A DNA stretch of 64,000 nucleotides from a virus, in the IMG/VR virus record IMGVR_UViG_3300034093_003283; one strand, written 5' to 3'. Below the pieces are notes generated by a model that did not search any database, was not told the origin of the DNA, and was given only the letters and a program-made list of their open reading frames with translations. Both the position numbers and the translations under genes were made by a program. Below are positions 5,316 to 57,271 of this stretch, piece after piece. Numbering within the stretch: the stretch's first letter is position 1; every line of letters starts with the position of its first letter.

Positions 5316-5960
5316 ATGAAACTCATTAAAGAAATTACCGAATCAGTAAACTATTTGGTGGAAGAAAATGATGGAAAGAAAACTCTTTTCATTGAAGGTC
5401 CATTTTTAGTTTCTGAGAAGGTTAACAAAAACGGCCGCATGTATAAAGAAGAAACCATGCGTAAAGAAGTTGGTCGTTATGTAACCGAGTATGTTGATAA
5501 AAATCGTGCCTTTGGTGAACTGGGACATCCAGACACCCCATCTATCAATCTGGATCGTGTGTCTCACATTATTGTGGGATTACGTCAAGAAGGAACTGCT
5601 TGGATAGGCAAAGCTAAAATTCTTGAAACACCAATGGGTAACATTGCAAGAAGTCTTATCGAAGGTGGCGCACAACTAGGTGTGTCTTCCCGTGGTATGG
5701 GTTCTCTCAAAGCTATCAACGGCGTTAACATAGTTCAAGATGACTTTCATCTGGCCACAGCGGCAGATATTGTAGCAGACCCTTCTGCGCCTGGTGCTTT
5801 TGTACAAGGTATTATGGAAGGTAAAGAGTGGATGATGGTAAACGGATCATGGACTGAGGTTCAGTACGAAGAAGCTAAGAGAGAAATCAAACAAGCTTCT
5901 AGTAAAGACATTGAACGTGTAAGTTTAAAAATATTCGAAAACTTCATCAAAAAACTTTAA
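5316..5960 (+). CDS. gp21: Prohead core protease
   Basis: GELGHP, LGVSSRGMGS, DIVADPSAP. Confidence 0.97.
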   Translation: MKLIKEITESVNYLVEENDGKKTLFIEGPFLVSEKVNKNGRMYKEETMRKEVGRYVTEYVDKNRAFGELGHPDTPSINLDRVSHIIVGLRQEGTAWIGKAKILETPMGNIARSLIEGGAQLGVSSRGMGSLKAINGVNIVQDDFHLATAADIVADPSAPGAFVQGIMEGKEWMMVNGSWTEVQYEEAKREIKQASSKDIERVSLKIFENFIKKL

Positions 5961-27162: not shown

Positions 27163-27237
27163 GGAGGTATAACTTAACGGCGAAAGTAGCTGGCTTTTAA
27201 CCAGTAAATCAGAGTTCGATTCTCTGTGCCTCTACCA
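27163..27237 (+). tRNA. tRNA-Lys(TTT)
   Basis: Cloverleaf, CCA. Confidence 0.9.
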
Positions 27238-47773: not shown

Positions 47774-48976
47774 ATGTTATCTTTCAAGAGCTTTTTAACC
47801 GAACAAGAGGATCCCGATGAGGGCGCCAGCCGTCAGATTAAACACCTGACGCATGTGGAAGACCGTCCCCTACAAACAGGTGAAAAAGGCACAGCACATG
47901 CTATCAAGTCATTGACAGCTTCAGCTGAACACATCAAGGCAGGTAAGAAGACTTCCGAACTTACCACAAAATATGATGGTTCACCTGCACTTGTTTATGG
48001 TCACCATCCAACCACTGGTAAATTCTTTGTTGCATCCAAATCAGCTTTCAACAAGACACCAAAGATTAACTATACACCAAAAGACATTGATAAGAACCAC
48101 GGACACGCACCTGGCCTAGCTGCCAAGTTAAAAGATGCGCTGACTCATTTGTTCAAGACTTCACCTAAACAAGGTGTTTATCAAGGTGATATGATGTTTG
48201 GTACCGACAAGGGTGATAAACAACAAGAGAAAAATGGCGGACATTCTTTCCATCCAAATCCGTCTGGTCTAACTTATACTGCTCACGGCCAACATGCTGC
48301 CGATGTTAAGAAAGCAAAAATTGGTGTTGTGACACACTTGTCATATCAAGGTAAAGATGCAGGCAATTTAAATGTATCACACGAAGTTGACCATGAAAAC
48401 TTCAAGAAACATCCAGATGTATTCTCAGTTGATCCAAGAATGGACACAGCAAAAGTTCATTTCAGTCCAGAAGAACAAAAGAAATTCAACAAACATATTG
48501 CAATGGCTCAATCGGTACATGACACCCATGGTGATGACATGTATGCTGGTACAAAAGCACATCATGGAGTTGGTGGTTCATTGGAAACCTATATGAATCA
48601 TACAGTTAGAACAAGTGAAGAACCCAATCATCAAAACTTTAAGAATTGGTTAGAAACCGATACAAATAAAAAAATTGATAAACTTAAAGTTGAAAAGAAT
48701 CGTACAGCCAAACAAGCTGATCTTAAAGCTGAACTTGGTAAAATTGAAAGAAATAAAAAACACTATAACAATGTATTTAAAATGCATGGCCATTTACAAA
48801 AGGCCAAAGATACTCTCATTGGTGTTATGAATCAACACCAAGAATTTCAACACTCACATGCCGGTGAAGATGCTAATCCAGAAGGATATGTTTTCCATCA
48901 CAATAACGAATCGGACAAATTTGTTAATCGTGCGGAATTCTCTAAGAGAAATTTTGCTGGGATCAGAAACATATGA
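47774..48976 (+). CDS. ATP-dependent ligase-fold protein
   Basis: TKYDGS (KxDG), QGDMMF, EGYV, KFV. Confidence 0.6.
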   Translation: MLSFKSFLTEQEDPDEGASRQIKHLTHVEDRPLQTGEKGTAHAIKSLTASAEHIKAGKKTSELTTKYDGSPALVYGHHPTTGKFFVASKSAFNKTPKINYTPKDIDKNHGHAPGLAAKLKDALTHLFKTSPKQGVYQGDMMFGTDKGDKQQEKNGGHSFHPNPSGLTYTAHGQHAADVKKAKIGVVTHLSYQGKDAGNLNVSHEVDHENFKKHPDVFSVDPRMDTAKVHFSPEEQKKFNKHIAMAQSVHDTHGDDMYAGTKAHHGVGGSLETYMNHTVRTSEEPNHQNFKNWLETDTNKKIDKLKVEKNRTAKQADLKAELGKIERNKKHYNNVFKMHGHLQKAKDTLIGVMNQHQEFQHSHAGEDANPEGYVFHHNNESDKFVNRAEFSKRNFAGIRNI

Positions 48977-50775
48977 AAAAGTTTTTAGAAAAAATACAAG
49001 AAGATGCACAGACGCATACACCTGCGGTAATGGCATTTGGTCGGATGAATCCTCCAACTATTGGCCATGAGAAATTGGTTGATAAGGTAAAGCAGATAGC
49101 AAAAGACTATAAAGCACCGCACCATATTATTGTTTCACATTCTATGGATGCAAAGAAGAACCCACTAGACACCACAAGCAAAATCAAACACGCAAAGAGA
49201 TTCTTTCCTGGTGCAAATATAACTTCATCCAGTAAAGAGAAACCAACTTTCTTGCAACACGCTGCAGCATTACATGCAGCTGGCCACGATCACTTGATAA
49301 TGGTTGCAGGTTCAGATAGAACCTCTGAGTATGAACAAAAACTAAATCAATACAACGGTGAAGGTCCAGGCAAACTATTCAACTTTAAAAAGATTGAAGT
49401 TAAGTCTGCTGGCCAGCGTGATCCTGATGCCGAAGGTGCAGAAGGTATGTCAGCCTCCAAGATGCGTGAACATGCAAAGAGTGGTGACTTCAACTCCTTC
49501 AAACAAGGTGTACCAGCACACGTACCTGAGAAACATGCAAAAGAATTGTTCCGTGATGTTCGTAAAGGTATGGGTATAAATGAGAATTACAATCGTGGTC
49601 TTTTCAGAGCCATATTTGTGACAGGTGGTCCTGGTTCTGGTAAAGACATTATCATTCGTGAAGCAATTCCAGAAACTAAGGCTGTAGAATTGAATTCAGT
49701 ACAGGCTTTCGAATATCTAATGGATAAACAAAAGTTATCTGAAAAGACAAATGACCACCGCAGAGAAGCAATCCGCAATCGTGGCCCATTGATTATTAAT
49801 GGACCGGCAGATGACCACTCCAGAATACTTACCATCAAAGAAGAACTAGAAGAATTAGGTTATAGTACCACTATGGTATTTGTTGACACAACCAACGAAG
49901 CCAGTAAAGAGAGAAATGAAAGATTGACAAAAACACTTGCCGAATCAATTAGATATGATAAGTGGAAACTTGCACAGACAAGTAAGCAAGCATACATTCA
50001 AAACTTTCAGAATTTTATGGAATTCAATAACAGTACTACATTAGATGAAATTGAAGAAGATATTTCTGACACTTACGAAAAAATAAATACATTTATTGAG
50101 AACAGAAAATTTAATGAAATTGCGTTCTCTTGGTTGGAAAATCACGGTAAATATAATATAACTGACTCTGTTTTTAAGGAAGATGAAAATGTTAAAAAGA
50201 ATTTTAGATTTGTTGAAAATTACAAAACCAAGCGCACCGGTACAGGACAAGCATCCACTGGACATCCAAAAGTATCAGCCGGAACAGGCCCCAGTGCAGA
50301 CGGTCCAAGTGACATTACCCCAGACAATCGTGCAGGAGACTCCAACGCCGACAATATCAAGTGGGACAGAAACGCCAAGCGTGGAGGTTACACCTTCAGA
50401 ACCTACACCGAAGACTCCGGCCCCACAGTTAAAGTCTACCCAGCCCCGAAAGAAAGCAACTTCAGCAAAGACAAAGAAAAAATAAAGAAAAAAGGCTTGG
50501 TTGATTCTCCTACTGTTAGTCAGAGGATGAGGAATGTTTCAGGAATCAGCCAAGAATTTGATACTCGCCAACAGGGAACAGTATACCCTATGTCTGGTCT
50601 TGGCGATGTGACATATAGAGAACAAGTCGATTTTAAACGATTTAGAGAATCATTTAATGATCCATCGGATTCCGAAATGGGAGTAGCTGGTGTTTTAGGT
50701 GGTTCTACAAATAAAGAGCCAATGGAAAATCCAAACGATAAGATGGGTTACTTTAACAAGAAGAAAAAGAAATGA
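48973..50775 (+). CDS. HIGH-type nucleotidyltransferase fused to P-loop kinase
   Basis: FGRMNPPTIGH, MSASKMR; GGPGSGK. Confidence 0.8.
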   Translation: MKKFLEKIQEDAQTHTPAVMAFGRMNPPTIGHEKLVDKVKQIAKDYKAPHHIIVSHSMDAKKNPLDTTSKIKHAKRFFPGANITSSSKEKPTFLQHAAALHAAGHDHLIMVAGSDRTSEYEQKLNQYNGEGPGKLFNFKKIEVKSAGQRDPDAEGAEGMSASKMREHAKSGDFNSFKQGVPAHVPEKHAKELFRDVRKGMGINENYNRGLFRAIFVTGGPGSGKDIIIREAIPETKAVELNSVQAFEYLMDKQKLSEKTNDHRREAIRNRGPLIINGPADDHSRILTIKEELEELGYSTTMVFVDTTNEASKERNERLTKTLAESIRYDKWKLAQTSKQAYIQNFQNFMEFNNSTTLDEIEEDISDTYEKINTFIENRKFNEIAFSWLENHGKYNITDSVFKEDENVKKNFRFVENYKTKRTGTGQASTGHPKVSAGTGPSADGPSDITPDNRAGDSNADNIKWDRNAKRGGYTFRTYTEDSGPTVKVYPAPKESNFSKDKEKIKKKGLVDSPTVSQRMRNVSGISQEFDTRQQGTVYPMSGLGDVTYREQVDFKRFRESFNDPSDSEMGVAGVLGGSTNKEPMENPNDKMGYFNKKKKK

Positions 50776-50984
50776 AAAAATTCACAGAGTTTGTCAAAGA
50801 ATCGACACCAGCAACACAGCAACATGACGCTCAGGAATTGAAGCGTCAAAAAACCCATTTGATGAATAAATCAAAAGAGTATTCTGACCAGGCTGAAAAA
50901 GAGAAACACTTTGGCCACGGCGGAGCAGCGGAAGCTAAAGGTGAAACAATGGCCCAGGCCGCACAAAATGTTAAAAAGTTTTAA
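50772..50984 (+). CDS. Putative internal head protein
   Basis: N-terminus MKKFTEFVKE. Confidence 0.55.
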   Translation: MKKFTEFVKESTPATQQHDAQELKRQKTHLMNKSKEYSDQAEKEKHFGHGGAAEAKGETMAQAAQNVKKF

Positions 50985-51273
50985 AGAATTCATGATAGAA
51001 ACTGCCGCATGGCAGCGTTCTGCTGGAAAAAATCCAGATGGTGGCTTAAATAGAAAAGGTATTGCATCTTATCGTGCAGAAAATCCTGGTTCAAAATTGT
51101 CGATGGCTGTTACAACAAAACCATCAAAATTAAAACCTGGATCTAAGGCAGCAAATAGACGTAAATCCTTTTGTGCTAGAATGTCGGGAATGAAAAAGAG
51201 ATTAACTTCTGCGGCAACCGCCAAGGATCCAGATTCAAGAATCAATAAATCACTACGCAAGTGGAATTGCTAA
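50968..51273 (+). CDS. Basic hypothetical protein
   Basis: MLKSFKEFMIE; GKNPDGGLN, RRKSFCARM. Confidence 0.65.
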   Translation: MLKSFKEFMIETAAWQRSAGKNPDGGLNRKGIASYRAENPGSKLSMAVTTKPSKLKPGSKAANRRKSFCARMSGMKKRLTSAATAKDPDSRINKSLRKWNC

Positions 51274-51288
51274 AAACGGAGAACAAAA

Positions 51289-52176
51289 ATGATAGACCTA
51301 AGAAAAAAAGATGACATGATTGCAGCAATTGAACAAATTCTTCAACAAGAAGCACTCAAGGGCAATCAACATTTAATTGATAAAAATAAAAACAACAAAG
51401 TTGATCCAGAAGATTTTAAAATTCTTCGTGGTGAAAAGAAAACTGTCAAAGAAGAAGAAACTGTTGATGAAGGCATCAAAGAACTTGCCAAGAAAGCTTT
51501 CAAAGCAGTTACTGGTGGTTCAGATGAAGACCAACGTAAAGACCTACAACGCAAGATGGGTCTACCACAAACTGGTAAGAAACCAACTCCTCAAAAAGAA
51601 GAAGTTGTTGATGAAAGCCTACTAGGCCAATTGAGAGATCGTGGTAATGTTGCTACAGGTCAAAAACAACAAGATCGTAAGAATTTTGATACAAATACTG
51701 GTGCTGCATTAAAACCAAATAGCACAATTAGTGGTATTAGAGCTAAGATGCAAAACAAAGTCCAAGAGGAATCTGAACAAATTGATGAGTTGTCTAAAAG
51801 CACTCTTGGTTCTTATATTAAAAAAGCAGCTGCTGACTCCACAATTTCTCGTAAAATTGGAGCTGATTTTGAAAATCGAGCAAATTCAAAAAGAAGTCCT
51901 GCAATGAAAGATGCATCTACAGCACTTTCAGATAAGTTTAAATCCGATTCACGTAAACGTAAAGCTAATGTCGATAAAGCAGTTGATCGTTTAACAAAAG
52001 AAGAAAAACAACCAAAAACTCTCCGTCAATTCAAAGAAGGCTGGGAAGAAATGATGGCCGATGTTAAGAAACGTGCAGAGCCAAAACCAAATGGTGGTTC
52101 AGGTGTCAAACAAGGTTCTCGTTACGGTGGTTCTAAACAAAAAGACACACCAGAACAGGACACAGAAAAAAAGTAA
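51289..52176 (+). CDS. Charged modular protein; likely -1 frameshift extension to 52337
   Basis: Repeated (V/I)xE motifs; ends in A_AAA_AAG_TAA. Confidence 0.7.
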   Translation: MIDLRKKDDMIAAIEQILQQEALKGNQHLIDKNKNNKVDPEDFKILRGEKKTVKEEETVDEGIKELAKKAFKAVTGGSDEDQRKDLQRKMGLPQTGKKPTPQKEEVVDESLLGQLRDRGNVATGQKQQDRKNFDTNTGAALKPNSTISGIRAKMQNKVQEESEQIDELSKSTLGSYIKKAAADSTISRKIGADFENRANSKRSPAMKDASTALSDKFKSDSRKRKANVDKAVDRLTKEEKQPKTLRQFKEGWEEMMADVKKRAEPKPNGGSGVKQGSRYGGSKQKDTPEQDTEKK

Positions 52177-52222
52177 CTGAGGCAAAAGGACCAACCAGTC
52201 AGGAAGACGGACCTTTTGTCTC
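52167..52222 (+). other. Programmed -1 ribosomal frameshift signal
   Basis: A_AAA_AAG, 5-nt spacer, 11-bp stem 52179-52189/52212-52222. Confidence 0.75.
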
Positions 52223-52345
52223 TAACATCAATGATGCAGAAGATTTGAAGCCATTGAATCACGCAAGATACTTGGCCAAAAAATCTTTGAAAAGAGTTAA
52301 GAACGAAATGATGGGTAAAGCAGGTACATCAGAATAAGGTAAAAA

Positions 52346-53926
52346 ATGAGCAAAGCGCTAACAATAAAATCAATAGTAAAAGGCACCGCAGATAAGCCAA
52401 CTTTCGGTACCAATCCTAGAGATCCGTGGTCCGCAAAAGCAAACATTGCGGAAGATGCTGCTTTAAACACATACTTGAAATCTAGAGGTATCAATCCAGA
52501 ATTTGCAACAAAAGACCAGAAGGTTTCGCATTCCAAGACAGGACAATTCATCAAGTGGAAAAGAGACCACATGATAGAGTCCATCACAGAAGCAATTGAC
52601 AAGATGGATGTTATCATGTTTGATATTCCATTGTTGATTCGTATGTTAGAGTATGCTCGTGAAGATGCAAAGACTGATATGGATTTGCACAAGGTTGTTG
52701 AGAAGTTAATACACATTCGTAAAAAAGGTGTGTTGACTATGAAAGACTATACCTTTGTGACAAGGCTAAGAGAAGGCCTTGAACTTGATGAAAATCATGT
52801 TGCAATCGCAATGGGTCAAATGATGGACGATGAAGGTAGTATGGTTTTGAATCAGTTGGACCAAATGGAACGTGCCGTAAACATGGTTCGTGATTACATT
52901 GGTACAGACTATGAAAAACAACTACCTGCATGGGTTCAGTCAAAACTAACATTGGCATCCGACTATATTGATACTGTTGGTAACTATCTAAACAGTAAGA
53001 ATGAAGATGTTAATGAAGCTGCATCAGCTTCTATCCGTATGTACAAGGCCTTGCAACAAGCCAAAGAGAAACGTGAACGTGAAGAACGCTTGGGTAACGA
53101 ACTGTTGAACAAGAAACCACCAGAACAAAAGCCTGTACAAAAAGAGGAAGTGAAAGACGAATATGCTCGTAAGGTCAACAAATATTTAAAAAAGAAATAT
53201 GCACCAGAACAGAAACCTGTGCAAAAAGAGGAAGTTGAAATTGACGAAGGATGGAAAAGAGCATTAGGTGCTACCGCAATAGCAGGCACTATGGCCCTGG
53301 CCAGTGGTGCCCACGCAAGAGTCAGTGGTGACCATGTGGACAACCCAGAAATTAATCGACTAACAGGTCAACCAAAAGTTACACAACAAATTTCTCCTGG
53401 CGCCACAAAACCCGCAGCGACAAATCCAGGGTTTAAGAAAGAATACTTACAAAGCGTTGCAGATGGAACACACCCAAGACCTTTGATTAGTAAAGAACGT
53501 GCTCAGGAATTACTTCAACAACATAAAGACAGTGATAAAGGCACTCAAAAGAACGAAAACTATCAGGACCCAATGGCCGCAACATCTATGCCAAACGGCG
53601 GAGCAAACAGTCCAGATGATGTTATGCCAAAAGATAAAAATAAGAAACTGATTCAAATGTCTAAGTCTGCTCGAATTATTAAGTCCATCTACAAAAGGAA
53701 GGGCATGAAAGAGGAGATTTATGACCACGAAAAGGAAGATAAGTCTGTTGCAACCTATGGTAAGAAACCAAAAATCCAAAGAGCAACAGATAATTCCAAT
53801 ATGGAGAAACCACAAGCCGCTGCAGTTATGACGGGTGGCACCACCTTAACTGGTGAAAAGAGAGATACCATCGAAATCGATCCTATGATGAAGATGCGTA
53901 GTAGACCCGATTCTGGAAAAAGATAA
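52346..53926 (+). CDS. Modular hypothetical protein
   Basis: LPAWVQSK motif; PEQKPVQKEEV twice. Confidence 0.65.
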   Translation: MSKALTIKSIVKGTADKPTFGTNPRDPWSAKANIAEDAALNTYLKSRGINPEFATKDQKVSHSKTGQFIKWKRDHMIESITEAIDKMDVIMFDIPLLIRMLEYAREDAKTDMDLHKVVEKLIHIRKKGVLTMKDYTFVTRLREGLELDENHVAIAMGQMMDDEGSMVLNQLDQMERAVNMVRDYIGTDYEKQLPAWVQSKLTLASDYIDTVGNYLNSKNEDVNEAASASIRMYKALQQAKEKREREERLGNELLNKKPPEQKPVQKEEVKDEYARKVNKYLKKKYAPEQKPVQKEEVEIDEGWKRALGATAIAGTMALASGAHARVSGDHVDNPEINRLTGQPKVTQQISPGATKPAATNPGFKKEYLQSVADGTHPRPLISKERAQELLQQHKDSDKGTQKNENYQDPMAATSMPNGGANSPDDVMPKDKNKKLIQMSKSARIIKSIYKRKGMKEEIYDHEKEDKSVATYGKKPKIQRATDNSNMEKPQAAAVMTGGTTLTGEKRDTIEIDPMMKMRSRPDSGKR

Positions 53927-53961
53927 ATAGTAACATAACCCTCGGTTAAAAGGAGAATAAA

Positions 53962-54831
53962 ATGTCATCTTGGGGAAATAACGATAACGCAGCTAACGCA
54001 CCATACTGGGCTGTTGAAACAGTACAAACAACAAATGCACCGGTTGCATCCGCACCAACAGCAGCAAACGTTGCATTGTTGTATGGTAACACACAATTCC
54101 AGGCATATACACAAGGTATGACTGTTGGATTATTCATGGTAGATGCTACAGAAACCACTGCTGGTGGTGATAATGTAGTAGATATCTCATTGTCAAATCA
54201 AGGTGCAGGATATGTTGAAGCACCTGGTGTTTCTATTGTAGCTAGTGCTGGTGCATATAGTGCAAGTGCCACCGCTACTATTTCTGCTGGACTGGTGAGT
54301 AATATTACAGTTGCAAACACTGGTGTTGGTTACACATCAACTCCAGCAGTTACAATTCAAGTACCTGTTTTAACTGTTCCTACAGCTACAGTAATTGTTG
54401 CCAATAACGTAATAATGTATACCGCACACGGGCAAGCAAATAGTGCGGCTCTTGTTTTCAACTGGGGCGGCTCTGCTAACATTAATGGTCTAACAAACGC
54501 AAACACATACTATGTTGTGCCTGTTGATGCAAATCGTTTCTCGTTGGCCAACACCGCAGCCCTTGCAGCAAACAATTCTGTTATTGACCTTTCATCAACT
54601 GGTGAAACAGGACAATTCTTTACTATTGTTGATGCAACCAGAGCAACAGCAATTGCAAGTCGTGGTTTAAGTCAAAGTGTTGATGGATCAGAACATGCAA
54701 CACACACTGGTTGGAACATAAAAACAGTTGGTTCCGGTGGCCGTGCAGGTCGTGTTCAGTATGAAACGTTAGTTGCCATTTCCGAAATTATAGGTGATGG
54801 TTCGGACGATATTACTTTACCTGACGCTTAA
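53962..54831 (+). CDS. Putative virion structural protein
   Basis: Ala/Thr/Gly rich, GxGY..xPxVxI repeats; GATAAATA upstream. Confidence 0.6.
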   Translation: MSSWGNNDNAANAPYWAVETVQTTNAPVASAPTAANVALLYGNTQFQAYTQGMTVGLFMVDATETTAGGDNVVDISLSNQGAGYVEAPGVSIVASAGAYSASATATISAGLVSNITVANTGVGYTSTPAVTIQVPVLTVPTATVIVANNVIMYTAHGQANSAALVFNWGGSANINGLTNANTYYVVPVDANRFSLANTAALAANNSVIDLSSTGETGQFFTIVDATRATAIASRGLSQSVDGSEHATHTGWNIKTVGSGGRAGRVQYETLVAISEIIGDGSDDITLPDA

Positions 54832-54858
54832 TAAAAGGGGCTTCGGCCCCTCTATAAT

Positions 54859-55245
54859 ATGTTTGATGAATTGAATGAAGATAATTTTATGATGTATGCT
54901 ATGAAATGCTATACATCACCACACTGTATTATGTCGGAATTTGAGGGAGATATTAAAAGAACGAAATACCTGAAAAGGTTATTCCGTAGATACAAGATAA
55001 CAAAATCCCTCAAAGAACGATTGATTATAAACCATATCATTTTATTGAACAATGTTTTTGGTCCAGAAGCAACTGCAAGAATATTGTTCTATAAGACTGA
55101 TGTTCGTGATTATGATATTCTAAAAACTTTTTTGGATTATCTAGATATCATGCCTGATTTTGTTTATGGTGTAAATGGAAAAACTATAGTATCATCAGAA
55201 ATACCACTAGATATAAATGTCGCAGAGATATTAAGAAACATATGA
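54859..55245 (+). CDS. Hypothetical protein
   Basis: KYLKRLF, ERLIINHIILLNNVFG. Confidence 0.65.
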   Translation: MFDELNEDNFMMYAMKCYTSPHCIMSEFEGDIKRTKYLKRLFRRYKITKSLKERLIINHIILLNNVFGPEATARILFYKTDVRDYDILKTFLDYLDIMPDFVYGVNGKTIVSSEIPLDINVAEILRNI

Positions 55246-55895
55246 AAACATTCAAAGATTACTTAGAAGAAAAAGGTCGTTGCTGGCCAGGTCATAGACC
55301 TGTTCCGGGTAAAAAACCTTTTTCTCCAGGTAGCTGCACAAAAGAAGAACTTGAATTGCAAGAAGATTTGCGAAAGTGGTTTAAACAAAAATGGGTTCGC
55401 ATGGACACCAAGGGAAACATTAAAGGTGATTGTGCTCGTGAACCTGGTGAAGGCAAACCAAAATGCCTACCTCAATCAAAAGCACAAGCATTAGGCAAAG
55501 AAGGTCGTGCCAGTGCAGCAAGAAGAAAACGCAGAGAAGATCCTAATCCAGAACGCCGTGGTGCACCTATCAATGTTGCTACCGAAGAAGTTGAACAGAT
55601 TGATGAAAAAAATGTTCCAACTAGTCCGGAAAAATGGGCTCGAGCAAAAGCAGCTGCTAAATCAAAATTTGCAGTATATCCATCAGCATATGCAAATGGC
55701 TGGGCGTCCAAAAAATATAAATCAATGGGTGGTGGATGGAGAGCAACATCGGAAGAAGTCATGTCAGCTGCACCAACTAACGCTGTCGGCACTGGTAACA
55801 TTGCAGGTTCAGGTGGTGCAGGTGGAGAACCAGGTGTTTCTAAGAAAAGAAATCCACTAATGTCATTCTATAAACGAAAACCTCCAAAGATGTAA
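55242..55895 (+). CDS. Modular basic protein, putative internal head protein
   Basis: MKTFKDYLEE; YPSAYANGW. Confidence 0.6.
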   Translation: MKTFKDYLEEKGRCWPGHRPVPGKKPFSPGSCTKEELELQEDLRKWFKQKWVRMDTKGNIKGDCAREPGEGKPKCLPQSKAQALGKEGRASAARRKRREDPNPERRGAPINVATEEVEQIDEKNVPTSPEKWARAKAAAKSKFAVYPSAYANGWASKKYKSMGGGWRATSEEVMSAAPTNAVGTGNIAGSGGAGGEPGVSKKRNPLMSFYKRKPPKM

Positions 55896-55896
55896 T

Positions 55897-56343
55897 ATGT
55901 GGATTCTTCAATGGTTGCCTAACTGGATCTTTTACGGGATATTTTTTGCAGGTCTATTAGGTCTGTTGGCCACTTATATAATGAAATTTATACCGCTTGT
56001 GTATGTGTATCGGACACCAATACAAGCGGTTTCTGTTTTGTTGATTGCAATAGGCACTTATATGTCCGGTGCAATATCAAATGAAGAAGCATGGCAGAGT
56101 AGAGTGAAAGAGATGGAAGCTAAAGTGGAAGCGGCTGCGGTAGAATCAGCACAAGAGAATGTAAAGATAGTTGAAAAGGTTGTAAAGAAAACCGAATACA
56201 TCAAAACCCGTGGCCAAGATGTTGTTAAATACATCGACAAAGAGATTGTCAAATATGATACTAAGTTTCTTCCAGGCGGTCAATGCGAGATACCAAAAGA
56301 ATTTATTGAAGCACATAATAGAGCTGCCGAGGCACCTAAATGA
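55897..56343 (+). CDS. Inner-membrane spanin-like (Rz)
   Basis: N-terminal TMs, coiled coil, C-terminal Cys; before lipoprotein and lysin. Confidence 0.6.
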   Translation: MWILQWLPNWIFYGIFFAGLLGLLATYIMKFIPLVYVYRTPIQAVSVLLIAIGTYMSGAISNEEAWQSRVKEMEAKVEAAAVESAQENVKIVEKVVKKTEYIKTRGQDVVKYIDKEIVKYDTKFLPGGQCEIPKEFIEAHNRAAEAPK

Positions 56344-56648
56344 AAAACATTGAAAAACAACAAAAGATTAGCACTATCCTGTTTGTTATAATAACAGCAA
56401 TATTCTTTTTTGCAATGTTATCGGGATGTTCAACTACAGTTCCAGTCACAGCTAAATTTCCAAATGCGCCAGAACAATTACTAGCTAAATGCCCTCAATT
56501 AGAAAAATTAGGTAATGAAGTAAAATTGAGTGATATAAGTAAGACGATTACTGCAAACTATACAACTTATTATGAATGTGCTGTGAAACATGATGCCTTT
56601 ATTGAATGGTATAACGTACAGAAAAACATTTTTGAAAGTGTAAAATAA
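56340..56648 (+). CDS. Outer-membrane lipoprotein spanin-like (Rz1)
   Basis: Lipobox LSGC, Pro-rich, two further Cys. Confidence 0.65.
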   Translation: MKNIEKQQKISTILFVIITAIFFFAMLSGCSTTVPVTAKFPNAPEQLLAKCPQLEKLGNEVKLSDISKTITANYTTYYECAVKHDAFIEWYNVQKNIFESVK

Positions 56649-57271
56649 TGGAACTATCTAAAGAACAACTAAAACAATTATTGCCGAAGAATCCATACAT
56701 TGACCAGTGGCATCATGCCCTAGAGCAGTTGTTGCCAGAATATGAAATCAATACACCACAACGTATTGCAGCTTTCATTGCACAATGTTCACATGAATCT
56801 GGTGGTTTCACAGCATTACAAGAAAATCTAAACTACAAGCCACCAACTCTACGCAAGTTGTTTGCTAAGTATTTTCCTAATGATGAAATTGCAATACAGT
56901 ATGCATCTAAGCCAAATAAACAAGAAGCTATTGCTAATAGGATATATGCTAGCCGTATGGGCAATGGCGATGAATCTTCTGGTGATGGCTATAGGTATCG
57001 TGGCCGTGGTCTTATCCAGTTGACTGGTAAAGACAACTACACATTCTTTGCTGGCTCATTACAAATTTCTGTAGAAGAAGCAGCCGAGTACATGGCAACA
57101 TTTGAAGGAGCCGCACAGTCAGCTTGCTGGTTCTGGGAAACAAACAACTTGAACCAATGGGCGGACAAAGGTGATATTGTTACATTGACAAAACGAATCA
57201 ACGGTGGTACCATTGGTCTTGATGACCGAATCAAACATTACGAACATGCACTTCATGTTTTAGGAGTTTGA
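56648..57271 (+). CDS. GH19 endolysin
   Basis: FIAQCSHES, YRGRGLIQLTG, INGG. Confidence 0.92.
   Translation: MELSKEQLKQLLPKNPYIDQWHHALEQLLPEYEINTPQRIAAFIAQCSHESGGFTALQENLNYKPPTLRKLFAKYFPNDEIAIQYASKPNKQEAIANRIYASRMGNGDESSGDGYRYRGRGLIQLTGKDNYTFFAGSLQISVEEAAEYMATFEGAAQSACWFWETNNLNQWADKGDIVTLTKRINGGTIGLDDRIKHYEHALHVLGV

Follow-up and report, generated by a model that had tools for sequence, protein, structure and literature searches.

A probable programmed -1 frameshift site that joins a conserved C-terminal module to a mosaic protein of T4-like lake phages

The locus and its neighbourhood

The stretch of DNA analysed here, hereafter the window, spans 64,000 nucleotides of a 111-kb contig (38% G+C) from an uncultured T4-like lake phage, and is found in many lake-water metagenomes. 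T4-type genes for the tail sheath, portal, prohead protease, scaffold and major head protein occupy window 0.5-8.6 kb, while DNA polymerase, helicase and primase, and ribonucleotide reductase are encoded further along the contig. The gene of interest, encoding a protein of 295 residues, has replication genes on one side and a lysis cassette on the other (Table 1), and is surrounded by a block of hypothetical genes including DUF6267, a cytidylyltransferase-like protein, DUF6321 and DUF7207. In the product of the gene immediately downstream, the linker PEQKPVQKEEV occurs twice, and a hydrophobic segment, GATAIAGTMALASGAHA, lies at the centre. Searches for terminators in the gene block returned none that was convincing, and the late-promoter motif TATAAATA displayed no overall enrichment (6 found versus 4.5 expected). 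The copies on the + strand precede the scaffold gene and the gene before the prohead protease, among others, a placement consistent with T4-type late promoters at a count that is not above chance.

The 0-frame ORF terminates at a heptamer of the X_XXY_YYZ type, and the -1 frame continues across the stop codon as KK VTEAKGPTSQEDG...GKAGTSE (in full KK-VTEAKGPTSQEDGPFVSNINDAEDLKPLNHARYLAKKSLKRVKNEMMGKAGTSE, of which the peptide GPTSQEDGPFVSNINDAEDLK forms part), with no ATG, GTG or TTG ahead of codon 27. These elements had been read from the letters of the window in the original prediction, and the ORF ending in GAA AAA AAG TAA, the AGGA upstream, the 11-bp stem 5 nt past the heptamer, the 54-codon open -1 frame that ends at 52335-52337 and lacks a usable early start, and the phage-encoded tRNA-Lys(UUU) were all recovered from the sequence at the same coordinates. 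Folding prolonged the stem, and the -1 ORF does reach to the next gene as had been claimed, the start at 52346 lying 8 nt after its stop.

Table 1. Features of the locus and its surroundings, in window coordinates (CTS, capsid-targeting sequence of T4)
Feature	Position	Strand	Remarks
Late-promoter motifs TATAAATA	4751, 5962, 9280, 23866, 47722	+	all five intergenic, 11-77 nt ahead of ORF starts
tRNA-Lys(UUU)	27163-27237	+	sole Lys tRNA of a 28-gene tRNA array
CTS-like leader	47774		MLSFKSFLTE
CTS-like leader	48973		MKKFLEKIQE
CTS-like leader	50772		MKKFTEFVKE
CTS-like leader	50968		MLKSFKEFMIE
0-frame ORF (P0001)	51289-52176	+	295 aa; last codons GAA (52165) AAA AAG TAA; protein end EKK-stop
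EF-hand/dockerin-like loop DKNKNNKVDPEDF	51379-51417		aa 31-43 of P0001; N-terminal, family-conserved
SD-like AGGA	52157-52160	+	6 nt 5' of heptamer; putative stimulator
Slippery heptamer A_AAA_AAG	52167-52173	+	in 0 frame; inside run of 7 As, 52166-52172
0-frame stop TAA	52174-52176	+	directly 3' of heptamer; -1 frame reads GTA A across
-1 extension	52173-52337	+	54 codons, VTEAKGPTSQ...GKAGTSE; TAA stop 52335-52337
Predicted stimulatory hairpin	52179-52222	+	5-nt spacer after heptamer; 11-bp lower stem, 3-bp apical stem, 5-nt loop
Downstream gene (P0003)	52346-53926	+	526 aa; directly behind extension in all relatives
CTS-like leader	55242		MKTFKDYLEE
Lysis cassette, membrane protein	55897-56343		
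Lysis cassette, small lipoprotein-like ORF	56340-56648		LSGC lipobox
Lysis cassette, GH19 chitinase-type endolysin	56648-57271		

The 295-aa protein is rich in Lys and Glu (64 K+R and 51 D+E), and is composed of short conserved modules, which have been shuffled between homologues. Searches against PHROGs and Pfam gave no function, the only PHROG match being one of unknown function, and a feature search of the ESM Atlas yielded unnamed viral clusters only, all below 0.9. The N-terminal loop, DKNKNNKVDPED, scores below threshold as EF-hand_7 (E = 0.009), homologues reach 24.6 bits against the Pfam EF-hand cut-off of 25.4, and some relatives in which body and module share one frame carry precomputed EF-hand and Dockerin_1 hits. 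An AlphaFold model of such an in-frame homologue is largely non-globular with isolated helices (pLDDT 55, pTM 0.17), and includes a low-confidence helix-loop-helix around the EF-hand-like loop. Overall, the protein would be a mosaic, mostly disordered, EF-hand-like phage protein.

The module in relatives: frameshifted, fused or separate

Three queries against IMG/VR, namely the 295-aa protein, the product of the downstream gene and the module encoded by the extension, recovered 201 loci, which were sorted by the 300 nt around the junction into 56 distinct contexts. The module lies in the -1 frame behind AAAAAAG-TAA in 37 of the 56 contexts and behind AAAAAAG-TAG in two (L190 and L192), is fused in frame in 15, and appears as its own 60-aa ORF with an ATG in the remaining two (L030 and L075). 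Heptamer and stop are preserved in all 39 frameshift-type junctions, which represent about 50 IMG/VR contigs and, by sample numbers, more than 40 metagenome datasets, and in these relatives the extension is found in the -1 frame without exception. No cultured phage yielded a homologue: when the 295-aa protein was compared by tblastn to 50,697 records of cultured or deposited phages there was no match, and searches with the DNA and the neighbouring genes matched distant T4-like cyanophage genes only.

In the in-frame relatives, which are more distant, the transition from body to module falls at the homologous position. The window junction reads ...GSRYGGSKQKDTPEQDTEKK/VTEAKGP, and a 349-aa form would run ...TEKK-VTEAKGP...GTSE; the corresponding in-frame junctions are ...KPEQEVKEGKDP in L066 (longer reading ...GSRYGGSKQKDKPEQEVKEGKDP), EKPVKEAKDP in L133 (...DKPEHDDEKPVKEAKDP), DTDKKVNES in L037 (...DKPEQDTDKKVNESKRP) and DDDKKKVTES in L055 (...DKPEQDDDKKKVTESKRP). 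A common body is shared by L071, where the reading is in frame (...YATATKAAKNEEVVTEAKRPESD), and L068, where it is frameshifted (...YATATKSAKNEEKKK-stop, then VNEAKRPESD). A module profile furthermore matched 85 longer proteins in a collection of 5.8 billion, with the module C-terminal in all 9 sequences read out of these 85, several of which have EF-hand or dockerin-type Pfam hits. The predicted transframe product is, at the level of sequence, equivalent to the in-frame homologues. The separate module ORFs (L030:4206-4388 and L075:4239-4421) possess a leader, MKSFKEFKSLME, directly ahead of the module.

Substitution patterns speak for translation of the extension in the -1 frame. In 23 unique main-clade sequences, pN/pS in this frame amounts to 0.21 over the entire extension and to 0.10 within codons 20-41; values for the 0 and +1 readings of these nucleotides are far higher, at 1.6-5.4. 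The extension is 83-100% identical among relatives, as compared to 35-92% for the gene body, which within the frameshift group falls to 35-40% identity with many indels. Judging by these figures, the 54 codons are a real and strongly conserved protein tail. Throughout the frameshift group the -1 frame is open for just 3-18 codons 5' of the module, and a start codon is absent ahead of the conserved residues. The -1 ORF hence bears the marks of a coding sequence without a start of its own, conserved as a fusion. The module is predicted to form a 25-residue basic amphipathic helix (residues 22-46, pLDDT 82-91), preceded by a conserved GP-S..D.PF motif, and modelled by itself it is one single helix.

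In addition, the last 10 extension codons (52290-52320), situated 25-55 nt ahead of the next gene's start, display only 0.02 differences per synonymous site versus 0.50 just upstream (25 unique relatives), which may stem from a signal of the downstream gene that overlaps these codons, or merely from shallow divergence.

That no recoding takes place here, the arrangement being due to an assembly or sequencing error, to independent translation of the -1 ORF or to a dead remnant, we hold to be very improbable. Homopolymer runs are prone to error, and one contig (L202) does have eight As at the site, as in the single-ORF assembly error that the original prediction had considered; the run of seven is however identical in about 50 independent contigs, in a separate DNA contig (X13, identical over 51289-52438) and in two metatranscriptome contigs (X16, 52041-52201; X17, 52060-52194), which cross it as A7 but hide any minority of A8 transcripts, and an error of this kind is thereby excluded. 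Independent translation is opposed by the missing start codon ahead of the conserved part, and pN/pS values of 0.1-0.2 rule out a dead remnant. RNA contigs of some runs show gaps over parts of the gene.

Two single contigs deviate at the junction. The Logan contig L202 has an extra A in two A7 runs (L202:715-735 and 895-905), the frameshift site being one of them, and the other, 180 nt upstream, breaks the frame of the body. Its A8 was considered as an in-frame variant or as a trace of RNA slippage, and set aside on both counts; because the second run is likewise extended and the body broken, homopolymer error is the simplest explanation, with polymerase stuttering at both runs an alternative if the run were RNA. 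In the JGI contig L203, a 23-nt deletion relative to the other main-clade sequences (L203:740-780) places the extension in frame (GSRYGG/TGHRRKKVNEAK) with the A7 run retained, which may be natural, as a constitutively fused variant, or the result of misassembly.

The distribution of junctions also bears on a second explanation, that a one-base deletion in an ancestral A8 run has simply been tolerated (a 'savior' or compensated change), with the 295-aa protein as the sole relevant form or as a by-product of no use, and the long form arising adventitiously by low-level slippage with no selected stimulators involved. In-frame relatives read AAA AAA GTA A.., where loss of one A creates the heptamer and the TAA at once, and frameshifted forms occur beside in-frame sisters in several module lineages (as in L068 and L071), fitting recurrent indels. 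Against this, the arrangement has outlasted divergence of the body to about 40% identity, the extension is under strong purifying selection, and the arms of the downstream hairpin are constrained at synonymous sites (see below). Such persistence, selection and arm constraint would be unexpected for a neutral accident, and we therefore consider a tolerated deletion improbable. Recoding at the window junction is instead very likely on the comparative evidence.

The frameshift signal and the proposed shift

The heptamer is per se unremarkable, AAAAAAG being found 35 times along the + strand of the 111-kb contig. The case consequently rests on comparison with the relatives, and it is because the site is kept there, and for that reason only, that the signal stands above chance; the X_XXY_YYZ-type heptamer in the 0 frame recurs in the 39 distinct junctions. 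A_AAA_AAG is the dnaX site and the most shift-prone heptamer in E. coli (PMC5009743), a ranking that may not carry over to the host of the phage. A single Lys tRNA decodes both AAA and AAG in E. coli (PMC5009743), and it may be speculated that the tRNA-Lys(UUU) of the phage contributes to the slip. The SD-like AGGA is positioned 9 nt from the heptamer in the commonest relatives, and is absent from one subclade and from the clades with long A-runs.

Downstream of the heptamer, the arms GAGGCAAAAGG (52179-52189) and CCTTTTGTCTC (52212-52222) form 11 bp, one G-U among them, and on folding this lower stem is prolonged by an A.A mismatch followed by CC/GG. The hairpin has a minimum free energy of -18.8 kcal/mol (z = -3.76), a stability reached by none of 200 shuffles. 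It is not an intrinsic terminator, since no T-run follows 3' of it. The stem was not returned by RNAalifold from a set of 20 sequences in which divergent clades were represented, and support was taken from a pairing count of the named structure in its place: for the 13-bp helix, 91% of cells are paired over 20 aligned junctions, versus 42-65% with the partner slid. Base-pair covariation is sparse because the stem scarcely varies.

Our preferred test of the hairpin was synonymous-site diversity, determined for 25 unique sequences. The codons of the 5' and 3' arms yielded 0.076 and 0.055, respectively, as compared to 0.25 for the loop codons, 0.28 for the upstream 0-frame codons and 0.50 for the codons past the stem, rendering the arms some 7-9 times less variable than the post-stem codons. 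The sole substitutions in the arms, AAA to AAG (A-U to G-U) and GGA to GGT (A.A mismatch to A-U), keep or improve the pairing, and the latter raises the predicted stability to between -26 and -28 kcal/mol in L019 and L025. A stable RNA structure about 5-9 nt downstream of the slip site thus appears to be under selection. The original prediction had proposed conservation of heptamer, stem and -1 ORF in homologues as a check, and heptamer and -1 ORF are indeed kept in the 39 junctions, with constraint on the stem arms.

These elements probably direct a programmed -1 ribosomal frameshift, with A_AAA_AAG as slip site and the 3' hairpin as stimulator, from which proteins of 295 and 349 residues would result. 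Ribosomes translating the 295-codon ORF would arrive at the heptamer with tRNA-Lys on AAA and AAG, and be paused by the hairpin that starts 5 nt downstream, a pause to which the stop codon next to the heptamer and the AGGA before it may also contribute. Part of them would then move back by one base and read AAA AAA GTA ACT..., adding the 54-residue module to yield the 349-aa form, while ribosomes that do not slip would terminate immediately at the TAA and release the 295-aa form. The two forms had been anticipated in the original prediction, and are strongly supported by the invariant site, the -1 coding signature, the constraint on the stem arms and the in-frame fused homologues. Such a shift would likely serve to set the ratio between a form that carries the most conserved part of the protein, the C-terminal module, and a form that lacks it.

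The identical protein would result if RNA polymerase were to stutter on the template run of seven Ts and add an A, the A8 transcripts encoding the 349-aa form in a single frame. Related clades with A9 or A10 runs point in this direction, as runs of such length slip more readily in transcription and slippage sites usually comprise nine or more: in L068, L099, L130, L132, L190 and L192 the hairpin is weak or absent (-8 to -10 kcal/mol), whereas L098 and L188 combine a long A-run with a hairpin. The A8 of L202 could be counted here as well, was it not for its second extra A, which points to homopolymer error. For the window, on the other hand, seven As are short for efficient polymerase slippage, the structure sits downstream of the run at a spacing typical of ribosomal stimulators and under synonymous constraint, and the two metatranscriptome contigs, from different studies, cross the run without an indel. 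Transcriptional slippage at this site is in our assessment unlikely, and a slip by the ribosome rather than by RNA polymerase is favoured. As the A9/A10 clades are mostly without a strong hairpin, the hairpin is not required for the arrangement in general, which suggests that lineages may differ in the mechanism of slippage.

Several features are shared between the proposed ribosomal frameshift and that of E. coli dnaX, which likewise employs A_AAA_AAG, a 3' stem-loop a few nt downstream and an upstream SD-like element for the production of two forms from one gene (PMC5009743). The outcome is different, for the shift in dnaX truncates the product, the -1 stop following soon after, whereas in the lake phage it is the 0 frame that stops immediately and the shift that adds 54 residues. 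The genes are moreover unrelated, and the Rfam covariance models are not matched by the phage site: a search of the hairpin region returned no family, and none of the frameshift families even at E <= 10. The upstream SD of dnaX is located about 10 nt from the heptamer, as compared to 6-9 nt for AGGA in the lake phage and its relatives (6 nt in the window). The label 'dnaX-like' given in the original prediction accordingly holds as an analogy of mechanism, and does not extend to the known Rfam elements or to the spacing of AGGA. In the IS3 family (IS911 orfA-orfB), A_AAA_AAG and a downstream structure similarly join an ORF to a -1 ORF, with the 0-frame stop near the site; unlike these, the lake-phage gene is no transposase or mobile element, its hairpin is simple and the shift adds a short C-terminal module. 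By analogy, the mechanism would be a -1 signal of the known dnaX/IS3 type, homologous to neither, in a gene family that is new. No prior description of this frameshift was found in the literature searched.

A possible place in the phage head

The gene was originally labelled a putative head protein, an assignment that is not established by our analysis: the head module (portal, protease, scaffold and major head protein, window 2.8-8.6 kb) lies about 43 kb away, and the hints of capsid targeting are circumstantial. A block of genes with CTS-like leaders extends over window 47774-55895, three of its ORFs being detected by a strict motif scan and two by eye, and the same scan of the 111-kb contig detects just these three ORFs, all flanking the frameshift gene. 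The starts of the 295-aa protein (MIDLRKKDDMIAAIE) and of its relative P0004 (MINIKKFDSVAE) are loosely CTS-like, and both fail the motif scan; the leader of the stand-alone module ORFs is CTS-like by eye. The phage encodes a gp21-type prohead protease (window 5316-5960; phrog_207 head maturation protease, 1.7e-75), and [LIVMA]-x-Glu sites occur at apparent module borders, including VTE/AKGP at the junction. Furthermore, a late-promoter motif is situated 52 nt 5' of the block's first gene, and two head genes are likewise preceded by one. On this sequence evidence, it is possible that the 295-aa protein is packaged in the head and proteolytically processed.

Internal proteins of T4 provide the closest setting for such a role, bearing a CTS, MKTYQEFIAE, that is removed by the gp21 protease (PMC8442874, PMC3012670). 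CTS-like leaders on the neighbours and on the L030/L075 module ORFs, a gp21-type protease and variable, mosaic genes are common to both systems. In contrast, the N-terminus of the 295-aa protein is only loosely CTS-like. To our knowledge, T4 internal proteins are not frameshifted. Among virion proteins, T7 gene 10A/10B and the major head protein of Lactobacillus phage A2 are cited as -1 shifts in PMC10885494. These resemble the present case in that a -1 shift near the end of a late gene gives a minor, C-terminally extended form beside a major one. The T7 and A2 proteins are however major capsid proteins, whereas the lake-phage protein has no capsid fold, its gene is placed outside the head module and its location in the virion is putative.

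Taken further, and tentatively, the family might represent mosaic capsid-internal polyproteins of T4-like lake phages that the prohead protease would cleave at [LIV]-x-Glu linkers, releasing small peptides. The module would then be a separately functioning peptide, delivered interchangeably by in-frame fusion, from its own CTS-led gene or by a frameshift cassette governing its copy number, with lineages employing either a short run and a hairpin (ribosomal) or a long A-run (polymerase). We regard this picture as rather doubtful as a whole.

The locus adds a well-supported recoding site to the T4-like phages, beyond the usual tail-chaperone and capsid genes, with a case built on natural 'experiments' in the form of fused, frameshifted and split sister genes. 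Gene callers cut the family short and lose its most conserved part, and the locus is consequently misannotated in many lake phage genomes. The lineages with A7 and a hairpin, set against those with A9/A10 and none, offer a compact system in which ribosomal and transcriptional slippage can be compared as evolutionary alternatives. If it is true that the protein is packaged, it would be the first internal head protein under frameshift control.
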